Part shown: positions 2,703 through 36,407 of the stretch, one piece after another
Layout: each line of letters starts with the position of its first letter
Position numbering within the stretch: the first letter of the stretch is position 1
DNA from: an uncultured virus (IMG/VR IMGVR_UViG_3300020049_015491)
Lineage: Duplodnaviria; Heunggongvirae; Uroviricota; Caudoviricetes
Reading direction: 5' to 3' (one strand)
Virus record (IMG/VR): IMGVR_UViG_3300020049_015491
Length of the DNA: 64,000 nt
Notes under the pieces: model-generated
Told to the model about the DNA's origin: nothing
What the model saw: the letters and a program-made list of their open reading frames with translations, nothing else
Database searches by the model: none
Program-made: the position numbers and the translations under genes

Positions 2703-3915
2703 CTTAACACCTCAGCAGCGGAGACCCCATCCTTTAGGGTGGGGAGGAGCTGCGTACGATAACTATATATCCTTTGAAGATAATCTTCAATGGAATGCTT
2801 CAAACCTTGATGGTGAAACTCGACCCCTCTCCAGAGCAACATAAGATGCTCTGTGAAACAATGAAGAGGTTTAACGAGGCTTGCAACCACATAGCAGAGA
2901 CGGTTTTCTCTTTGCATAGCGCCAACAAGGTTGAAATCCATAAGACAGTTTACTATCCCGTCAGAGAGCATTTTGGCCTCTCGTCCCAGCTCACTATCAG
3001 AGCCATCTCCAAGGTCTGCGAAGCCTATAAGAGGGACAAGTCCATCAAACCAGAGTTTCGGCTTGATGGCGCCATCGTTTACGATCAAAGAATCCTCTCT
3101 TGGAAGGGACTTGAGAAAGTTTCTCTGGTTACTCTTCAAGGCAGACAAACTATTCCTGTTCGCTTCGGGGAGTATCAAAAGGCTAGATTGGATAGGATCA
3201 GAGGTCAAACCGACCTGATCCTCGTCAAAGGGGTGTTCTACCTCTGCGTTGTAGTTGAAGTTCCTGAAGCATCTCCTTATGATCCCAAAGGAGTTCTTGG
3301 CGTAGATCTCGGTATCAAGAACTTGGCAGTAGACAGCGATGGCGAGGTGCATTCTGGTGAGAAAATCCAGAATGTCAGATCCAAGTCGGATCTTCTTAAG
3401 GCCAAGCTTCAAAGTGTTGGGACCAAATCGGCTAAAAGGCATCTCAAGAAACTGTCTGGCAGAATGGCGAGGCTCGCTAGGGATACTAACCATTGTATCT
3501 CCAAGACTCTGATTATGAAGGCTAAAGACACTCTGTCCTTGATCTCCCTCGAAGATCTTGAGGGTATTCGAAATATGACAGAGAGAACGGTTAAGAAGTC
3601 TCAGAGACATAACCATAGTTCTTGGAGTTTCAACCAGCTTAGAGAGTTCGTGACCTATAAGGCTACCATAGCTGGTGTTCCTTTGGTCTACATCGACCCT
3701 GCATATACCTCTCAGGAATGTCCTATTTGCCATTGTATCTCCAAATCTAACCGTCCTACAAGGGATGAATTTTGTTGTACCTGTTGTGGCTTCTCTGGTC
3801 CAGCAGACAACGTTGCAGCTCTGAATATCAGAGCAAGGGTAGAAGTCAACCTACCCATCGTGGCGCGATTTTTTGCGCAGCCGCAAGCCGCGTCCTTTAG
3901 GGCGCGGTAGTTGAC
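2703..3915 (+). mobile_element. IS200/IS605-family element, TnpB-only
   Basis: Left-end hairpin CCCCATCC-TTTA-GGGTGGGG with guide GAGA predicts target TCAT (2699-2702). Right-end hairpin CCGCGTCC-TTTA-GGGCGCGG with guide CAAG ends in TGAC at 3915. Confidence 0.85.
2795..3910 (+). CDS. tnpB: TnpB (Cas12f-related clade) nuclease
   Basis: GVDLG / LEDL / ADNVAALN RuvC motifs, YTSQECPIC...CTCC zinc ribbon. Confidence 0.92.
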   Translation: MLQTLMVKLDPSPEQHKMLCETMKRFNEACNHIAETVFSLHSANKVEIHKTVYYPVREHFGLSSQLTIRAISKVCEAYKRDKSIKPEFRLDGAIVYDQRILSWKGLEKVSLVTLQGRQTIPVRFGEYQKARLDRIRGQTDLILVKGVFYLCVVVEVPEASPYDPKGVLGVDLGIKNLAVDSDGEVHSGEKIQNVRSKSDLLKAKLQSVGTKSAKRHLKKLSGRMARLARDTNHCISKTLIMKAKDTLSLISLEDLEGIRNMTERTVKKSQRHNHSSWSFNQLREFVTYKATIAGVPLVYIDPAYTSQECPICHCISKSNRPTRDEFCCTCCGFSGPADNVAALNIRARVEVNLPIVARFFAQPQAASFRAR

Positions 3916-5525: not shown

Positions 5526-5759
5526 CTACTCAGGATTCTCCGGTGATATGTCGCAAATAACAACATCACCCAGCTTAGTAGTTCCCAAAACGTCCTCCAG
5601 GCCATCCTTGTCAGGGCCTTCGACCTTCAGAGTGATTTTGGTATCATCAATCACCGCAGTTGCAGATACGACATAGACCATCTTTTTCTTCCCACTGCTC
5701 AACAACTTGACCGGCTTAGGGCCACTGGTGGTTACAGTCAGTTCGACCGTGGAATCCAC
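5526..5759 (-). CDS. Hypothetical protein
   Basis: Overlaps the end of the upstream gene; T-tract follows the stop. Confidence 0.6.
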   Translation of the reverse strand: MDSTVELTVTTSGPKPVKLLSSGKKKMVYVVSATAVIDDTKITLKVEGPDKDGLEDVLGTTKLGDVVICDISPENPE

Positions 5760-6217
5760 TCCGTCCCGACCTTCTCCACCATTGGGAAGTTGACCACAGC
5801 AGGCATCCAGTCCGGGTCACTGTCTTTCTTGGGTCTCTGTCCTCTGGAGCCTCTGAACATGTGGACTTTGATCTCAATCACTCCTTTCTTTCCGACCTTC
5901 CTCCTGACCCCAGTCTCTCTCAGACGGATATCAATCACGCCGGCATTGGCTGCCTTCAGGGCGGCCTGCCTGGGGGCGTGGCCAGTGTACCGTCCAATAT
6001 CGCAATTATCGACATCCATCAGCATGAATACCCGGAACTTTTTCTCTGGATCGGCTTTGGCCGGCTTCACGGCTTTACCAGCTTTGCCAGCTTTGCCAGG
6101 CTTGGTAGCCTTGGCAGCTCTGGCGGTTGCAGTCGCTTTGACGGGGGGCTTAGAAGCTGTCGGCTTGGCAACAGCTACCTTATCGGTCTTGATGATTTTC
6201 TTTTCAGTTTTTCTCAT
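5738..6217 (-). CDS. MC1-family chromosomal protein with Lys/Ala/Pro-rich N-terminal tail
   Basis: GRYTGHAPRQAALKAAN...IRLRETG...KVHMF...PDWMP...VEK matches the MC1 signature; GGAGG SD before ATG 6217. Confidence 0.88.
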   Translation of the reverse strand: MRKTEKKIIKTDKVAVAKPTASKPPVKATATARAAKATKPGKAGKAGKAVKPAKADPEKKFRVFMLMDVDNCDIGRYTGHAPRQAALKAANAGVIDIRLRETGVRRKVGKKGVIEIKVHMFRGSRGQRPKKDSDPDWMPAVVNFPMVEKVGTEWIPRSN

Positions 6218-6253
6218 GTTAACCTCCTGTGATACTGATAACATTTATTCCGA

Positions 6254-8744: not shown

Positions 8745-8932
8745 ACTTCCTCCGGTGGCTCATTTTCGACCTTAGTATGCTCGCCCATCCTGATTTGCAT
8801 TTCTGGGCAATTTTTCAAGAATTCTAGTATAAATTCGCGATCTTCAAGACGAGATGCAAGTTTATTCGCAACCCTTGCCATTGTCGCGTCATCCCCCCAG
8901 GGGAGATCAATGTAAAATTCAATTCGCCTCAT
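8741..8932 (-). CDS. Small hypothetical protein
   Basis: ATGA-coupled to the upstream gene. Confidence 0.55.
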   Translation of the reverse strand: MRRIEFYIDLPWGDDATMARVANKLASRLEDREFILEFLKNCPEMQIRMGEHTKVENEPPEEV

Positions 8933-9210
8933 TGAGACCTCAGCCATTCGTTGAAGGAAGTTGGTTGTAAATTTAATTTTTTTTGTTTATTTAAGTAGCT
9001 GCGGAACTTTTTAGCATGCTGTTCAATCCATTCCTTTCCTGGATAAGGCCCCCATTCCTTGATGCATTCCGGCCCCACGCCCCTGGCAAAGGAAAGCTCA
9101 TCAGTAAGTTGTTTCCCACAGTAGATGCAATGGGTTTTACCATTTCCCAGCGCTTTAAATCCTGGAAAACCTGGCATTACCCGCCCATTTTTAATGAATA
9201 CTCTGCCCAT
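8929..9210 (-). CDS. DUF6011-like zinc-finger protein
   Basis: CIYCGKQLTDELSFARGVGPEC motif. Confidence 0.75.
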   Translation of the reverse strand: MGRVFIKNGRVMPGFPGFKALGNGKTHCIYCGKQLTDELSFARGVGPECIKEWGPYPGKEWIEQHAKKFRSYLNKQKKLNLQPTSFNEWLRSQ

Positions 9211-9242: not shown

Positions 9243-9316
9243 TAGGTGTCTAGTCTGAGCACGCAAGGAGCAGGTCGCACCAGCCTGCGAGGAATCGTAC
9301 TCAGATATCTAGCCTA
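9243..9316 (-). ncRNA. BHB-closed hairpin, copy 1
   Basis: UAGG-CUAG-AUA-UCUGAGUACG...CGUGCUCAGA-CUAG-ACA-CCUA: 4-bp helix with two opposed 3-nt bulges. Confidence 0.7.
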
Positions 9317-9334
9317 AAAAATAAAAGGTGCCTT

Positions 9335-9757
9335 CTACTGAGAAGGTTCAGCAGGAGGCAAGAGGAACTTGATGGCCAGCTCGGACTGCTCGTAATTCTT
9401 GGACGTAGCATTTCCGATAAGTCCACCCAGTATGTCTGACTGATCTATAACGAACTTCTCTCCAACCAGACCGGCGATGTCTGTGACCAGATCTCGCTTG
9501 ATCCCGTCCAGGTCCTGCAAGGTATCATTCATGATGGGGCGCGACAAGCGTTCGGCGTACTTCTGAGCTTCATTGCCCTGAAAGCCAGAGCCCACCCTGT
9601 TGCTCATGCCTTCCTGGATTTCGGTATCTAGGTCCTCAACCTCTTCAAAGAATCGGTTAACCTCGCGTTCCATGCTTTCCTTAAAAGCAAGTTTCATGTC
9701 CACAAGCTTTCTGCGTAGCTTATTGACATCAGTGTTATCTTTTACAACTTCAACCAT
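9335..9757 (-). CDS. Hypothetical helical protein lying between the two BHB elements
   Basis: 140-aa ORF with GGAG SD. Confidence 0.7.
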   Translation of the reverse strand: MVEVVKDNTDVNKLRRKLVDMKLAFKESMEREVNRFFEEVEDLDTEIQEGMSNRVGSGFQGNEAQKYAERLSRPIMNDTLQDLDGIKRDLVTDIAGLVGEKFVIDQSDILGGLIGNATSKNYEQSELAIKFLLPPAEPSQ

Positions 9758-9807
9758 TCGGATTTCTCCAAAACACTGTTCACTACATTGTATTTCAACC
9801 TTTGCAA

Positions 9808-9877
9808 AAGTGTCCAGTCCGAGTACAAGGAAGATAGCATGATGCGCTACTGAGGGAAGTACCCGGATATCTGGCCT
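9808..9877 (-). ncRNA. BHB-closed hairpin, copy 2
   Basis: AGG-CCAG-AUA-UCCGGGUAC...GUACUCGGA-CUGG-ACA-CUU; compensatory changes relative to copy 1. Confidence 0.7.
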
Positions 9878-9885
9878 GAAAAAGG

Positions 9886-10170
9886 TTATTGGTCTTTCAA
9901 CATTTCAAGCACATGGTTGAGATCCCGGAGGAACATTTTCCCGGAATCAGTGATTAGATATCGGTCTCGGAGATCCCCCATTATGATTCCTTCTGAACGG
10001 GCGATTTCTCTCGTTCGAGTGAGAACGATAAATTTCCGCTCCATCAGGATGCTGAGAATCTTTTTGGCACTGACTGAGTTTATTCGGACTCGATCTACAA
10101 TATCTGTGAGTACCCTGCTATCGCAAGCATCCAGTACCTCCTTTGTGAGTTCTATTTTATCTCTTACCAT
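9886..10170 (-). CDS. Winged-helix transcriptional regulator
   Basis: LTDIVDRVRINSVSAKKILSILMERKFI...YLITDSG pattern typical of archaeal wHTH proteins. Confidence 0.7.
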   Translation of the reverse strand: MVRDKIELTKEVLDACDSRVLTDIVDRVRINSVSAKKILSILMERKFIVLTRTREIARSEGIIMGDLRDRYLITDSGKMFLRDLNHVLEMLKDQ

Positions 10171-27843: not shown

Positions 27844-27948
27844 ACCAAAAATCTGTGAGTTAAAGGTATTTAAGGATTTCTGCAGGTTCTTCTGATAACG
27901 GTTGATGGTATATATAATGAATTGTAACGGATTGTAATGAATCCAATT

Positions 27949-28408
27949 TGGGAACTCTGGGAACTTTTAGATCAAAAATGGGAACCATACGATAACAATA
28001 TAACATATATATATATAATATACAATAACATCATCATCATCATCATCATACCAAATTCATTTCATTCAGTTCCCAAGTTCCCACGATTCCCATAAAATAC
28101 ATCACTTTTTTCAACCTCGCATTTTCAAGTTAATTTCTAGTTAATACTGCCGCTAACGATTCCTTAAGATTTCACGAGAAACACGTATCAAGCGACATCA
28201 ATTTTTACTAAGTTTCATAGGGGCATTTTTTTCTCTCTCTTATGAAACAACTGGGATCTTTGGGAATTCGGGAACTCGATGTCACTCGTTATCGGTTTGT
28301 GGTTCCCGAAGTTCCCAATAATGGATGTGTAAAAAAGGGTTAAAATGCCGTCTGAGCCTGGTTTTTTCATTTTGGGAACTAGCCGGGTTTTGGGATTTCG
28401 GGAACTGG
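27949..28408. repeat. Iteron-like GGGAAC repeats around an AT-rich tract (origin candidate)
   Basis: (T)GGGAAC(T) x3, then TA-rich and (TCA)n tracts, then AGTTCCCA-like x3; a second inverted set at 28252-28318. Confidence 0.7.
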
Positions 28409-31361: not shown

Positions 31362-32492
31362 CTACTCCCCCGAATAAATTCGGGGGCATCTAACGCTTTG
31401 ACGTACAGACTGTAGTCCCAGTCTGAGAATATTTAAGGCTGCATTATGATCTCTATCGAGAGTCAGCCCGCATGAAGGGCATGAATGAGTTCTTTCTGAT
31501 AGGTCTTTATGAACGATCTGACCGCAGCCTGAGCATATTTGGGATGTGTTATTTGGGTTCACGAGTTCAACACGCTTACCGGCCCATTCTGCCTTGTAAG
31601 TCGTGGCAGTTATCAGTTTGTTCCAAGAAGCATCCGCAATATGCTTTGCAAGACAATGGTTCTTAACCATGCCTCTGATATTCAGATCTTCGAATACTAT
31701 TAAGTCATAGGATTTGATTATGGATAGGGACAGTTTTTGAACAAAATCATCTCTCTTGTTTGTGATTCTCTCATGAACTCTATGAACCACTTTCAGAGCA
31801 TTCTTCCTCGCGGAGGTGCCCTTGGGTGCCTTTGAAAGTTTCCTTTGAGCTTTGGCAAGAGCTTTTTCTTCATGAATGAAGAACCTTGGATTATCGACCT
31901 GGTCACCGCTGGATAAGGTGATGAAGCTTTTCAGGCCCACATCAATGCCAATAGATTCTCCTGTGAGAGGCAGCGGCTCATCAGGTTCGACTTCAACCAG
32001 GAAAGAGGCAAACCACTTCCCAGTAGGCATCTTCCTTATGTTGACTCTCTGGATCGCTCCCTCTACAGCTCTATGGAGCTTGATTTTAATCTCGCCGATC
32101 TTGGAAAGCCATAGTTTACCCGGCTTCAATGAAAAGCCTGTCTGGGTGTAGGTGAAGCTGTCATATCTGCCTTTACCTCTGAATCTAGGGTAGCCTGGAT
32201 CACCGCCTTCTTTCACCCTTCTGAAGAAAGCTTTGTATGCCAGGTCAACCCTCTTCACTACTTCCTGAAGTACTTGAGAGTGGACGCCTTTCAGTTCAGG
32301 TTTCTCATCTTTCCAATGAGGTAGAAGCTTCTTAGTTTCATAATAGGAGACGGATATTTCCTCTTTCTCCCAAGCATTCTTTCTAGTTGCCAGGGTCTCG
32401 TTATAGGTCCATCTGCAAAGCTCCAGGGTATCATCCATCTTAGATCTCTGGGACTTTGTGGGATAGATCCTATACCGGAGAACCTTCAGCAA
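31362..32492 (-). CDS. tnpB: TnpB nuclease
   Basis: GIDVG / FEDL / DRDHNAA motifs, Zn ribbon. Confidence 0.95.
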   Translation of the reverse strand: MLKVLRYRIYPTKSQRSKMDDTLELCRWTYNETLATRKNAWEKEEISVSYYETKKLLPHWKDEKPELKGVHSQVLQEVVKRVDLAYKAFFRRVKEGGDPGYPRFRGKGRYDSFTYTQTGFSLKPGKLWLSKIGEIKIKLHRAVEGAIQRVNIRKMPTGKWFASFLVEVEPDEPLPLTGESIGIDVGLKSFITLSSGDQVDNPRFFIHEEKALAKAQRKLSKAPKGTSARKNALKVVHRVHERITNKRDDFVQKLSLSIIKSYDLIVFEDLNIRGMVKNHCLAKHIADASWNKLITATTYKAEWAGKRVELVNPNNTSQICSGCGQIVHKDLSERTHSCPSCGLTLDRDHNAALNILRLGLQSVRQSVRCPRIYSGE

Positions 32493-34812: not shown

Positions 34813-35220
34813 ATGAAGTACAAGCTCGATAGATCGGCGCATTCCGTGTATTCACTGCATTACCATTTGGTGATAGTGGTAAAATACAGGAGGAAGGCAC
34901 TCTACGATGATGTGATCAGAGAGCGCCTAAAGCAGATCATATGGGGCTTGACGGATGATCTCGGAATAGAGATTCTTGCACAAGAGCCCGCCGAAGATCA
35001 TCTTCATGTGCTGTTCAAGGGCACACCTAAAACCAACCTGGTCAACGTTGTAAACGTCATAAAGGGTGTCACTGCTAGAAGGCTCAGACAAGAATTTCCA
35101 CAAACAAAAGAGTTTCTTTGGGGAGATTCCTTTTGGTCTGACTCATACTTCATAGCCTCAACCGGACAGGTTAGCCTTGATATTCTGATGCAGTATGTAG
35201 AATCTCAGATGGAGAAATAA
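34813..35220 (+). CDS. tnpA: IS200-type Y1 transposase
   Basis: YHLVIVVKYRR, DHLH, YVESQ. Confidence 0.95.
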   Translation: MKYKLDRSAHSVYSLHYHLVIVVKYRRKALYDDVIRERLKQIIWGLTDDLGIEILAQEPAEDHLHVLFKGTPKTNLVNVVNVIKGVTARRLRQEFPQTKEFLWGDSFWSDSYFIASTGQVSLDILMQYVESQMEK

Positions 35221-36407
35221 TGATTATCAGCTACAAGTATCCCATATTCCCTGATAAGGCAACACAGCAAAAGTTAGCCGAAGCTTTGGATGCTTGTAGA
35301 TGGCTCTATAACAAGCTTCTTGAGAGGATGAACGAAGCCAGAGAGAACGGCTTCAAGCTCAGTACATACGAAACTCAGAACATGATACCATCTATGAAGC
35401 TTGAGAATCCCAAACTGAACCTAGTCTATTCCAAAGCCCTTCAGATGGTGAACTACACACTACATAGCAATATTTCCGCCCTGGCTGCCTTGAAGAGGAA
35501 TGGGTATGAAGTTGGTCCTCTAAGATTCAAGGGCTACGGATGGTACAAAACCATCAACTATAACCAGTCTGGCTTCAAACTTGATCAAAACCATAGTTGT
35601 TTGCGCATCTCCAAGATAGGTAACATCAAGATCAAAATGCATCGTAAGATTTGGGGATGCATCAAGGCCATCCTACTCAAGAAAGAAGGCAAACGGTGGT
35701 TTGCTATCGTTCAGGTAGACCAAGAACCTGAGATATTACCTGATAATGGGAAATCCGTAGGTATAGATGTTGGCCTGAAATCGTTTGCTGTTGACACTGA
35801 TGGCAGATCTGTTGAGAATCCCAGATTTGCAGAGAAGGCGGCTACCAAGGTTAAGAACATCCAGAGGAGGCTGTCGAGGGCTAAGAAGGGCTCCAATAAT
35901 CGCCAGAAGCTTCGGGATAAGCTGGATAAGGCAAATGATAGAATCAACCGCCAGAGAAACGACTTCCTCCATAAGTTATCCAGATCTTATGTCAACAACT
36001 ACGATATAATCTGCGTTGAAGATCTTGATGTCAAAGGGCTAAAAGAGAAGGGTTACAACAAAAGCACGCATCGGAACATTCATGATGCGTCCTGGTCCAG
36101 ATTTCTATTCATGCTTTCGTACAAGGCTGAAAGTGCTGGTCGAAGGCTGATCAAAGTAGATCCCAGGAACACCACTCAGAGGTGTTCCGCTTGTGGAAGC
36201 ATTGTGAAGAAAGAGCTATCTGATAGGGTTCATGAGTGCCCTTATTGCGGTTTCTCATGTGATAGAGACTATAATGCTTCCATAAATATACTCATTGCAG
36301 GGATGGAACAGCCCATAGCGCCCACAGAGTCAAAACCTCTACGTCACATTTCTGTGATGCAAGTTTTGGCGATGAAGTGGGAAGCCCTACCCTTCAGGGT
36401 AGGGTAG
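35220..36407 (+). CDS. tnpB: TnpB nuclease
   Basis: GIDVG / VEDL / DRDYNAS motifs, Zn ribbon. Confidence 0.95.
   Translation: MIISYKYPIFPDKATQQKLAEALDACRWLYNKLLERMNEARENGFKLSTYETQNMIPSMKLENPKLNLVYSKALQMVNYTLHSNISALAALKRNGYEVGPLRFKGYGWYKTINYNQSGFKLDQNHSCLRISKIGNIKIKMHRKIWGCIKAILLKKEGKRWFAIVQVDQEPEILPDNGKSVGIDVGLKSFAVDTDGRSVENPRFAEKAATKVKNIQRRLSRAKKGSNNRQKLRDKLDKANDRINRQRNDFLHKLSRSYVNNYDIICVEDLDVKGLKEKGYNKSTHRNIHDASWSRFLFMLSYKAESAGRRLIKVDPRNTTQRCSACGSIVKKELSDRVHECPYCGFSCDRDYNASINILIAGMEQPIAPTESKPLRHISVMQVLAMKWEALPFRVG

Follow-up and report, generated by a model that had tools for sequence, protein, structure and literature searches.

Co-varying bulge-helix-bulge RNA elements between genes of virus-like elements: a family of candidate introns for the tRNA-splicing endonuclease of methanogens

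Do mobile elements of archaea make use of the splicing endonuclease of their host? This question is raised by a 64,000-nucleotide stretch of DNA from an uncultured virus (IMG/VR record IMGVR_UViG_3300020049_015491), hereafter called the window, in which two intergenic hairpins resemble the bulge-helix-bulge (BHB) substrate of the archaeal endonuclease EndA. A preliminary description, made from the sequence without database searches, proposed that host tRNA splicing uses them to release small circular RNAs, which might repress translation, or to process the polycistronic message. We followed up this proposal by computational analysis of the window, its relatives and likely host genomes.

Both elements were recovered on the minus strand as described, by inspection of the sequence, a strict motif scan of both strands, folds and covariance models. 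Copy 1 (9243..9316, minus strand) contains a 4-bp outer helix (UAGG 9316-9313 with CCUA 9246-9243), a central helix (CUAG 9312-9309 with CUAG 9253-9250) and the bulges AUA (9308-9306) and ACA (9249-9247), and its interior consists of a 10-bp inner stem, a pyrimidine internal loop and an apical hairpin. Copy 2 (9808..9877, minus strand) contains a 3-bp outer helix with one G-U pair (AGG 9877-9875 with CUU 9810-9808), a central helix (CCAG 9874-9871 with CUGG 9817-9814), the bulges AUA (9870-9868) and ACA (9813-9811), and a 9-bp inner stem. In both copies each bulge lies 3′ of its central-helix strand, which is the polarity of tRNA introns. With the cut placed after the second bulge base, a register taken from the available text of PMC4090602, the predicted excised introns or rings would span 9248..9306 (59 nt) and 9812..9868 (57 nt) on the minus strand, reproducing the coordinates first proposed.

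When folded as minus-strand RNA, copy 1 had a z-score of -3.27 and none of 200 shuffles was equally stable; for copy 2 the z-score was -2.45 (3 of 200 shuffles equally stable), compared to -0.65 for the plus strand. A strict BHB motif (inner stem of at least 9 bp, at most one G-U pair, outer helix of at least 3 bp), whose thresholds were fitted to both window copies, occurred twice on the two strands of the window versus a mean of 0.05 and a maximum of 1 in 100 dinucleotide shuffles. A looser motif (inner stem of at least 7 bp) also gave two occurrences versus a shuffle mean of 0.57, and 10 of 100 dinucleotide shuffles reached two. The outer helices depended on context: pair probability in copy 1 fell from 0.95 to 0.13-0.28 in wider contexts, and the outer helix of copy 2 was weakly predicted (0.09-0.13 locally, 0 in wider contexts). 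No tRNA gene was found in the window, no Rfam family reached its gathering score there, and no Rfam match to E<=10 overlapped either BHB element, in line with the earlier statement that neither element is in a tRNA or rRNA. The joined exons fold as a plain hairpin rather than a tRNA or rRNA, which sets the elements apart from tRNA and rRNA introns.

Homologous loci were fetched by protein and not by structure, using an alignment of DUF6011 proteins as bait, which yielded 13 loci in JGI metagenomes and 15 in IMG/VR. A covariance model trained on nothing but the two window copies, a search that the preliminary description had called for, detected 8 homologues in these DUF6011-fetched loci (E 6e-9 to 4e-5), and a pattern scan added L054 and L034/L053. 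The element was present in 10 of the 13 JGI loci; those lacking it were L057 and L060, with only 195 and 120 upstream bases, and L061, a 26-residue match in another context. Among the 15 IMG/VR loci it was present in one, L034, which is from the same genome as L053 and is the sole full-length DUF6011 match. A model rebuilt from the family found no third copy in the window and one copy in the relative G110.

Searches by DNA pattern returned little. Patterns from the two window copies had no match in IMG/VR or in JGI metagenomes, a looser pattern gave 14 IMG/VR matches of which none folds as a BHB, and a family consensus pattern, which cannot match L034 or L054, had no match in IMG/VR and matched 8 of 74 fetched loci. 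The winged-helix and MC1 proteins, used as queries, retrieved no IMG/VR loci; close winged-helix relatives exist. In host genomes of the family Methanotrichaceae the element pattern was found in 0 of 105; model R1 gave one weak match with no BHB, and model R2, with 37 candidates scored per genome, gave 7 weak matches (E 0.04-0.43), none folding as the element.

Sequence comparison provided evidence for the structure. Across 11 aligned versions, 93.8% of pair cells were paired and 15 of 18 pairs had changed on both sides. In a non-redundant set of 8 versions, obtained by removing the near-duplicates L050, L055 and L056 from the 11 rows, which hold about 8 independent versions, the corresponding values were 93.8% and 11 of 14, and slid controls gave 23-45%. 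None of 500 shuffles was as high in either set (for the smaller one, in cells and in score), but these counts ignore the relatives' ancestry and are not probabilities, because the relatives share ancestry. RNAalifold recovered the BHB with no structure supplied. In addition, a 5′ bulge of 3 nt allowed 54 of 56 inner pairs versus 18-23 for bulges of 1, 2, 4 or 5 nt, and a 3′ bulge of 3 nt allowed 22 of 24 outer pairs versus 9-15 for other sizes, from which we infer that bulge size is selected. Of 22 bulges, 21 have A as their first base, the 3′ bulge begins with AC in 11 of 11 versions, and G16, C21 and AC are invariant within the central helix and bulges.

The preliminary description had named, as the sign of an ordinary terminator hairpin, homologs that keep the stem and lose the 3-4-3 geometry. 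What we found is a canonical arrangement in 10 of 11 versions, with all four central pairs, and three of four central pairs in L034. The inner helix has 8-10 bp in all versions, the first two outer pairs are kept in 10 of 11, and several relatives have outer helices of 5 to more than 10 pairs; in L059 the central helix was out-competed in a wide-context fold (0.01). Intron length ranges from 52 to 82 nt. Sense-strand pairs include 7 G-U versus 2 C-A across versions, which bears out the argument that G-U pairs on the minus strand point to RNA. An ordinary terminator hairpin, a DNA palindrome or a chance structure is largely refuted by these data and very improbable. Copy 1 is followed by six T and T-runs precede most copies, but the T-run after the hairpin is at most 4 in 10 of 11 versions and a terminator scan called neither element; the G-U bias, the exact bulge sizes and the shuffle results are further arguments against this explanation. 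The data thus show an RNA structure with EndA-type BHB geometry, on the minus strand and under selection.

By the definition in the available text of bioRxiv 10.64898/2026.10.13.758758, an EndA-type hBHBh′ element has a 4-bp central helix that joins the exon strand to the intron strand, flanking helices of at least 2 contiguous pairs, and two 3-nt bulges, one per strand, that follow their helix strand on its 3′ side. The flanking helices are present, with that of copy 2 predicted to be weak on the outer side, and the bulges have this arrangement in 11 of 11 versions. The family has every structural feature of an hBHBh′ intron and is a candidate member of this class.

What carries these elements, and in which host? 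Proteins encoded in the window include MC1, a family B polymerase, a primase-helicase, a helicase and four IS605 TnpB-like proteins. Most of its long frames are shared, at 40-75% identity, with G110, a relative of 77,180 bp with direct terminal repeats that is complete according to IMG/VR. No terminase, capsid or portal/head family was recognized in the window (29 proteins) or in G110, and we therefore use the term virus-like element; the label 'virus' comes from the IMG/VR listing of the relative and two tail-family matches. The polymerase frame of G110 (L078-L081) is ~380 aa longer than that of the window and may contain an intein. A non-coding stretch at ~27940-28100, beside the primase-helicase gene, carries GGGAAC/GTTCCC inverted repeats around GAT and AT runs and is a candidate replication origin. 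The MC1 chromatin protein gene (5738-6244) has an Ala/Lys-rich N-terminal extension and is kept in relatives.

The likely host is a member of the Methanotrichaceae, a link that is indirect and made at the family level. Four IS605 TnpB/Cas12f-like genes are located at 368-1546, 2774-3910, 31362-32492 and 35220-36407; the best matches of the first and second to Methanotrichaceae DNA are at 78% and 83%, and some match was seen in 76 of 105 genomes. In a Methanotrichaceae CRISPR array with 78 repeats (L021 8197-13808), 2 of 77 spacers match the family of the 140-aa gene that separates the two BHB copies (27 of 34 bases in the window, 30 of 34 in L023). Two other observations were set aside: two 36-base host matches at 5939-5974 (92%) correspond to host MC1 genes and not to spacers, and a likeness to the host CRISPR repeat, noticed by eye, is limited to stretches of 6-7 bases that are not common to both copies. 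All five Methanotrichaceae genomes tested encode EndA, with PF01974 twice in one 352-377-aa frame (two-domain, alpha2), and all five encode RtcB (PF01139), so that both EndA and an RNA ligase are found in the host as indirectly assigned. The available text of PMC4090602 reports for alpha2 EndA enzymes a strict requirement for the full BHB motif. Because the fold is the exact shape cut in tRNA-intron removal, the host probably excises small rings from the viral message, and we regard cutting by EndA followed by ligation by RtcB as likely.

BHB introns outside tRNA and rRNA have precedents. In the parts of PMC7714728 available, two archaeal cases of BHB splicing in mRNA are named, cbf5 and HVO_1309, both chromosomal. 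The HVO_1309 5′-UTR intron of Haloferax volcanii, which is 46 nt long, BHB-bounded, circular and cut in vitro (PMC7714728), is the nearest precedent for a short BHB intron in untranslated mRNA with a possible effect on downstream expression. The conserved BHB family described here is real and would work like the HVO_1309 intron, with several differences from what that source describes: HVO_1309 is a chromosomal, single case in a 5′ leader for which cutting was shown, whereas here cutting is predicted for a family on virus-like elements of methanogens, located between cistrons, tied to a winged-helix gene and carrying conserved CCUY loops. The cbf5 mRNA intron of Crenarchaeota, named in the available text of PMC7714728, is also of the EndA type and interrupts a reading frame; here, in contrast, both splice sites are outside coding frames and no frame is restored by splicing. 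Compared to archaeal tRNA and pre-rRNA introns, as the available sources describe them, geometry (hBHBh′) and polarity are the same, but there is no surrounding tRNA or rRNA and there are no C/D boxes. We found no report of BHB introns in viral mRNA in the literature searched, with subscription journals and supplements outside its scope. The HFTV1 preprint, in its available portion, mentions only a viral tRNA intron, and the available portions of PMC12558985, PMC12918454, PMC6379350 and PMC10515664 deal with host RNAs.

RNA data consisted of contigs from 4 runs, in assembled form only; X14 and X15, a small share, had no cover of the elements and were not used. No spliced or circular joints were detected in these contigs, which drop rare forms and usually lose short rings. 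In X1 and X2, which come from one study, contigs run through both copies without splicing and at a flat depth that may stem from DNA. X1 and X2 each contain a pair of contigs that share positions 9782-9811; the downstream one would therefore begin at 9811, where the 3′ exon of copy 2 is predicted to begin, and it has the greater depth (43.4 versus 35.8 in X1; 36.1 versus 21.9 in X2). A 5′ end made by processing, a stop of reverse transcriptase or a strain diverging at 9782 could each account for this break. The upstream contig is unbroken near 9868, although a full spliced path should break there too, and copy 1 has no such break; we consider the break at 9811 ambiguous, a lead and not support. 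The X1/X2 strain seems to differ from the window at 9809, within the weak outer helix of copy 2. A second contig of X2 departs at 9316, just before copy 1 on the minus strand, and would represent a strain that has the 140-aa gene followed by another downstream region, perhaps lacking copy 1.

Given that only unspliced forms were seen, we considered whether the RNA could be a BHB mimic or decoy that binds host EndA, RtcB or another protein, either titrating tRNA/rRNA maturation or staying bound uncut. The central helix and bulges are conserved in sequence beyond the needs of cutting, as the invariant G16, C21 and AC illustrate, which speaks for this reading. However, there are one or two copies per genome, inside an operon, and a perfect substrate would turn over instead of blocking the enzyme. 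The CCUY motifs of the interior would also be left without explanation. A decoy is therefore improbable.

If the element is excised, does the released piece do anything? CCUY motifs are unpaired in circular folds and are strongly enriched, with 28 in 8 introns versus 9.0 in base shuffles (maximum 18 in 1000 shuffles). The first CCUY is at intron position 14-15 in 8 of 8 introns, and long versions carry up to six; the positions are 15 and 39 in copy 1 and 14 and 39 in copy 2. The 3′ tail of host 16S rRNA reads CACCUCCU, and its hexamer CCUCCU is present in 3 of 8 introns. This enrichment and fixed position agree with the earlier observation of conserved pyrimidine tracts akin to the anti-Shine-Dalgarno (anti-SD) sequence. 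The motifs may be seeds that pair with ribosome sites or a protein site; they fit both. A search for a specific target of these 4-6-nt seeds, which are too short to single one out, found none.

Known regulators offer a model for such rings. Methanosarcina mazei sRNA162 is a small RNA that masks ribosome sites (PMC3510493, available text), and Listeria LhrC masks ribosome sites through redundant CU-rich sites (PMC4132741, available text). Like these, the predicted rings would have unpaired, repeated CU-rich seeds able to pair with ribosome-binding sites; unlike them, they are predicted rings, with no sequence relation to sRNA162 or LhrC, which the same sources describe as linear, separately transcribed RNAs with tested targets. 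We regard pairing of the rings with SD sites in trans as a tentative suggestion. The preliminary interpretation is partly supported: it holds with regard to minus-strand RNA, EndA geometry, host EndA and RtcB and anti-SD-like motifs; its cleavage, circles and translational repression did not gain such backing, as no joint was seen in RNA contigs and no target emerged.

Excised introns can be functional RNAs: the archaeal tRNA-Trp BHB intron nests a C/D guide (PMC4090602, PMC6379350 and PMC10515664, in their available parts). Another reading is an H/ACA-type guide released by splicing, in which the internal loop would be a pseudouridylation pocket and ACA the box, and 9 of 11 versions do have ACA after a hairpin whose internal loop is two-sided. 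Nevertheless, pattern searches found neither a kink-turn nor C/D boxes: the C box (RUGAUGA) is absent from 11 of 11 versions, and CUGA (box D) occurs in 1 of 11, inside a stem. In H/ACA RNAs the ACA lies 14-16 nt from the top of the pocket. Here, it lies 12-14 nt below the loop bottom and ~19-20 nt from the loop top, the pocket is not kept in long versions, and the host 16S-23S region offers nothing beyond G-rich 4+4 wobble matches. A guide of this type is barely credible.

The position of the element gives further clues. In 8 of 8 relatives tested, as also for copy 2, the gene upstream is a PF14947 winged-helix gene (7 of the 8 above the family cut-off), and 0-11 nt separate its stop from the central helix in 10 of 11 versions. 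In the window this gene (HTH_45, 94 aa, 9886..10170, minus strand) stops 11 nt before the central helix of copy 2. The two copies were initially described as flanking one gene, and in the window they do; the association is with the upstream winged-helix gene and not with the flanked 140-aa gene (9335..9757, minus strand), which is of no known family and has 91 relatives. The element is absent from 10 fetched relatives of this gene (67-78% identity) and from the whole records G001-G004, and an Atlas lookup of the 140-aa protein gave no lead. The gene downstream varies and can be DUF6011, a 54-57-aa frame, a 209-aa frame or the 140-aa gene; in the window, DUF6011 (PF19474, 93 aa, 8929..9210, minus strand) is the first long frame after copy 1 and served as homologue bait. 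Splicing neither extends nor fuses reading frames, as stop codons precede the 5′ site.

The two-copy layout seems to have a history. A stretch of 8 bases at 9325..9332 (minus strand) matches the final winged-helix codons of L054 and L058 exactly and is equally far from the central helix, and within the 24 bases upstream of copy 1, 16 and 15 equal those of L054 and L058 versus 3-13 for other relatives. This stretch is probably a remnant from a time when copy 1 followed a winged-helix gene. Because copy 1, although placed after the 140-aa gene, keeps this remnant, the best reading of the layout is a recombinant in which the 140-aa gene was captured between two versions of the element. In L054, L055, L056 and L058, extra genes (54-57 aa, 209 aa) are directly behind the element, marking a hot spot of gene capture. 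Two short minus-strand frames were also noticed: copy 2 is followed by an SD-like AGGU and then an ATG-TAG start-stop (9801-9783), and a 9-codon frame overlaps the DUF6011 start after copy 1 (9220-9191). Both are near the places of relatives' downstream gene starts (14-28 nt after the bulge) and are possible relics or small regulatory frames.

Such exchange of neighbors raises the possibility of a neutral or selfish insert, that is, mobile or relic sequence tolerated through host splicing that is also a recombination point for gene capture. The differing genes directly downstream among relatives, and the 140-aa gene flanked by two copies, are what such an insert could produce. However, the element occupies a single fixed locus, has strong compensatory change and conserved unpaired motifs, is not repeated elsewhere in the window or in complete G110, and would form rings with no conserved coding frame. 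We consider a neutral insert quite unlikely.

Flanking exons may have a role of their own. For 5 of 9 relatives, opening the SD core of the next gene was costlier than after nearly every shuffle of the 20 bases upstream (0-1 of 100 as high), with SD cores chosen by eye; in the other 4 of 9, 11-18 of 100 shuffles were as high and masking was not clear. Neither window copy showed masking of the ribosome site (82 and 92 of 100 shuffles as high). The mask was kept in ligated exons and lost in the cut 3′ piece, which was far more open. A modelled ribosome at the upstream stop (9 bases past the stop unpaired) lowered the opening cost by at least 3 kcal/mol in 7 of 9 relatives and also removed the outer helix. 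On these models, the outer helix of many relatives would form between the 3′ end of the winged-helix gene and the ribosome site that follows, suggesting a second role, in cis.

This raises the main rival explanation, a processing switch acting only in cis. Here EndA would cut the polycistronic message, with or without ligation, to split or retune it and free the downstream ribosome site; the excised piece would be a by-product, and CCUY would bind a regulator, such as the winged-helix protein, on the precursor. The constant place of the element after the winged-helix stop (10 of 11 versions) and the masked ribosome sites, open in the cut 3′ piece but not in the ligated form, favor this explanation. 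So does the down-regulation of HVO_1309 under EndA repression (PMC7714728, available text), and the X1/X2 contig start at 9811 is a weak and ambiguous hint in the same direction. On the other hand, both window copies keep the BHB with no masking, CCUY is multiplied inside long introns where a by-product would not need it, and the downstream genes differ. A switch confined to cis is possible, although we think it is not the likely answer.

Our best reading, which we judge about evenly balanced, is that of host-spliced UTR introns whose rings are functional RNAs. The setting would be an untranslated gap of an early/replication operon, carried by circular Methanotrichaceae virus-like elements of 77-83 kb. 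A few bases downstream of the winged-helix gene, the transcript of this operon would adopt a strict BHB fold. Both bulges would be cut by the alpha2 EndA of the host and the ends joined by RtcB, yielding a shortened message and a ring of 52-82 nt that is presumably stable. The ring would itself be under selection and display unpaired CCUY, most likely as seeds pairing with SD-like GAGG/AGGA of putative target messages, or as a site for a protein that binds the 16S tail. Since the outer helix spans the winged-helix end and the next ribosome site, translation of the winged-helix gene would affect both the site and the BHB: it would expose the ribosome site of the following gene and is expected to melt the outer helix on which EndA depends. 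If splicing occurs, a functional ring is somewhat favored; taken over both steps, ring function is as much open to doubt as to belief. The fullest version, in which viral circular sRNAs are made by host tRNA splicing, imitate the anti-SD tail through CCUY and throttle translation in trans, with ring production coupled to winged-helix translation, is speculative and should be taken as a minority view among the readings above.

In this study, we describe a conserved, co-varying BHB family on virus-like elements, suggesting that mobile elements put the splicing endonuclease of their host to use on messages of their own. The family would be the first comparative handle on the purpose of UTR BHB introns and provides short natural substrates (52-82 nt) for a direct cleavage test. 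Annotation tools ignore intergenic BHBs outside tRNAs, and our findings suggest searching all archaeal virus genomes for them. If the trans reading is true, the elements would represent a class of virus-encoded circular regulatory RNAs and a splicing-gated switch in archaea.
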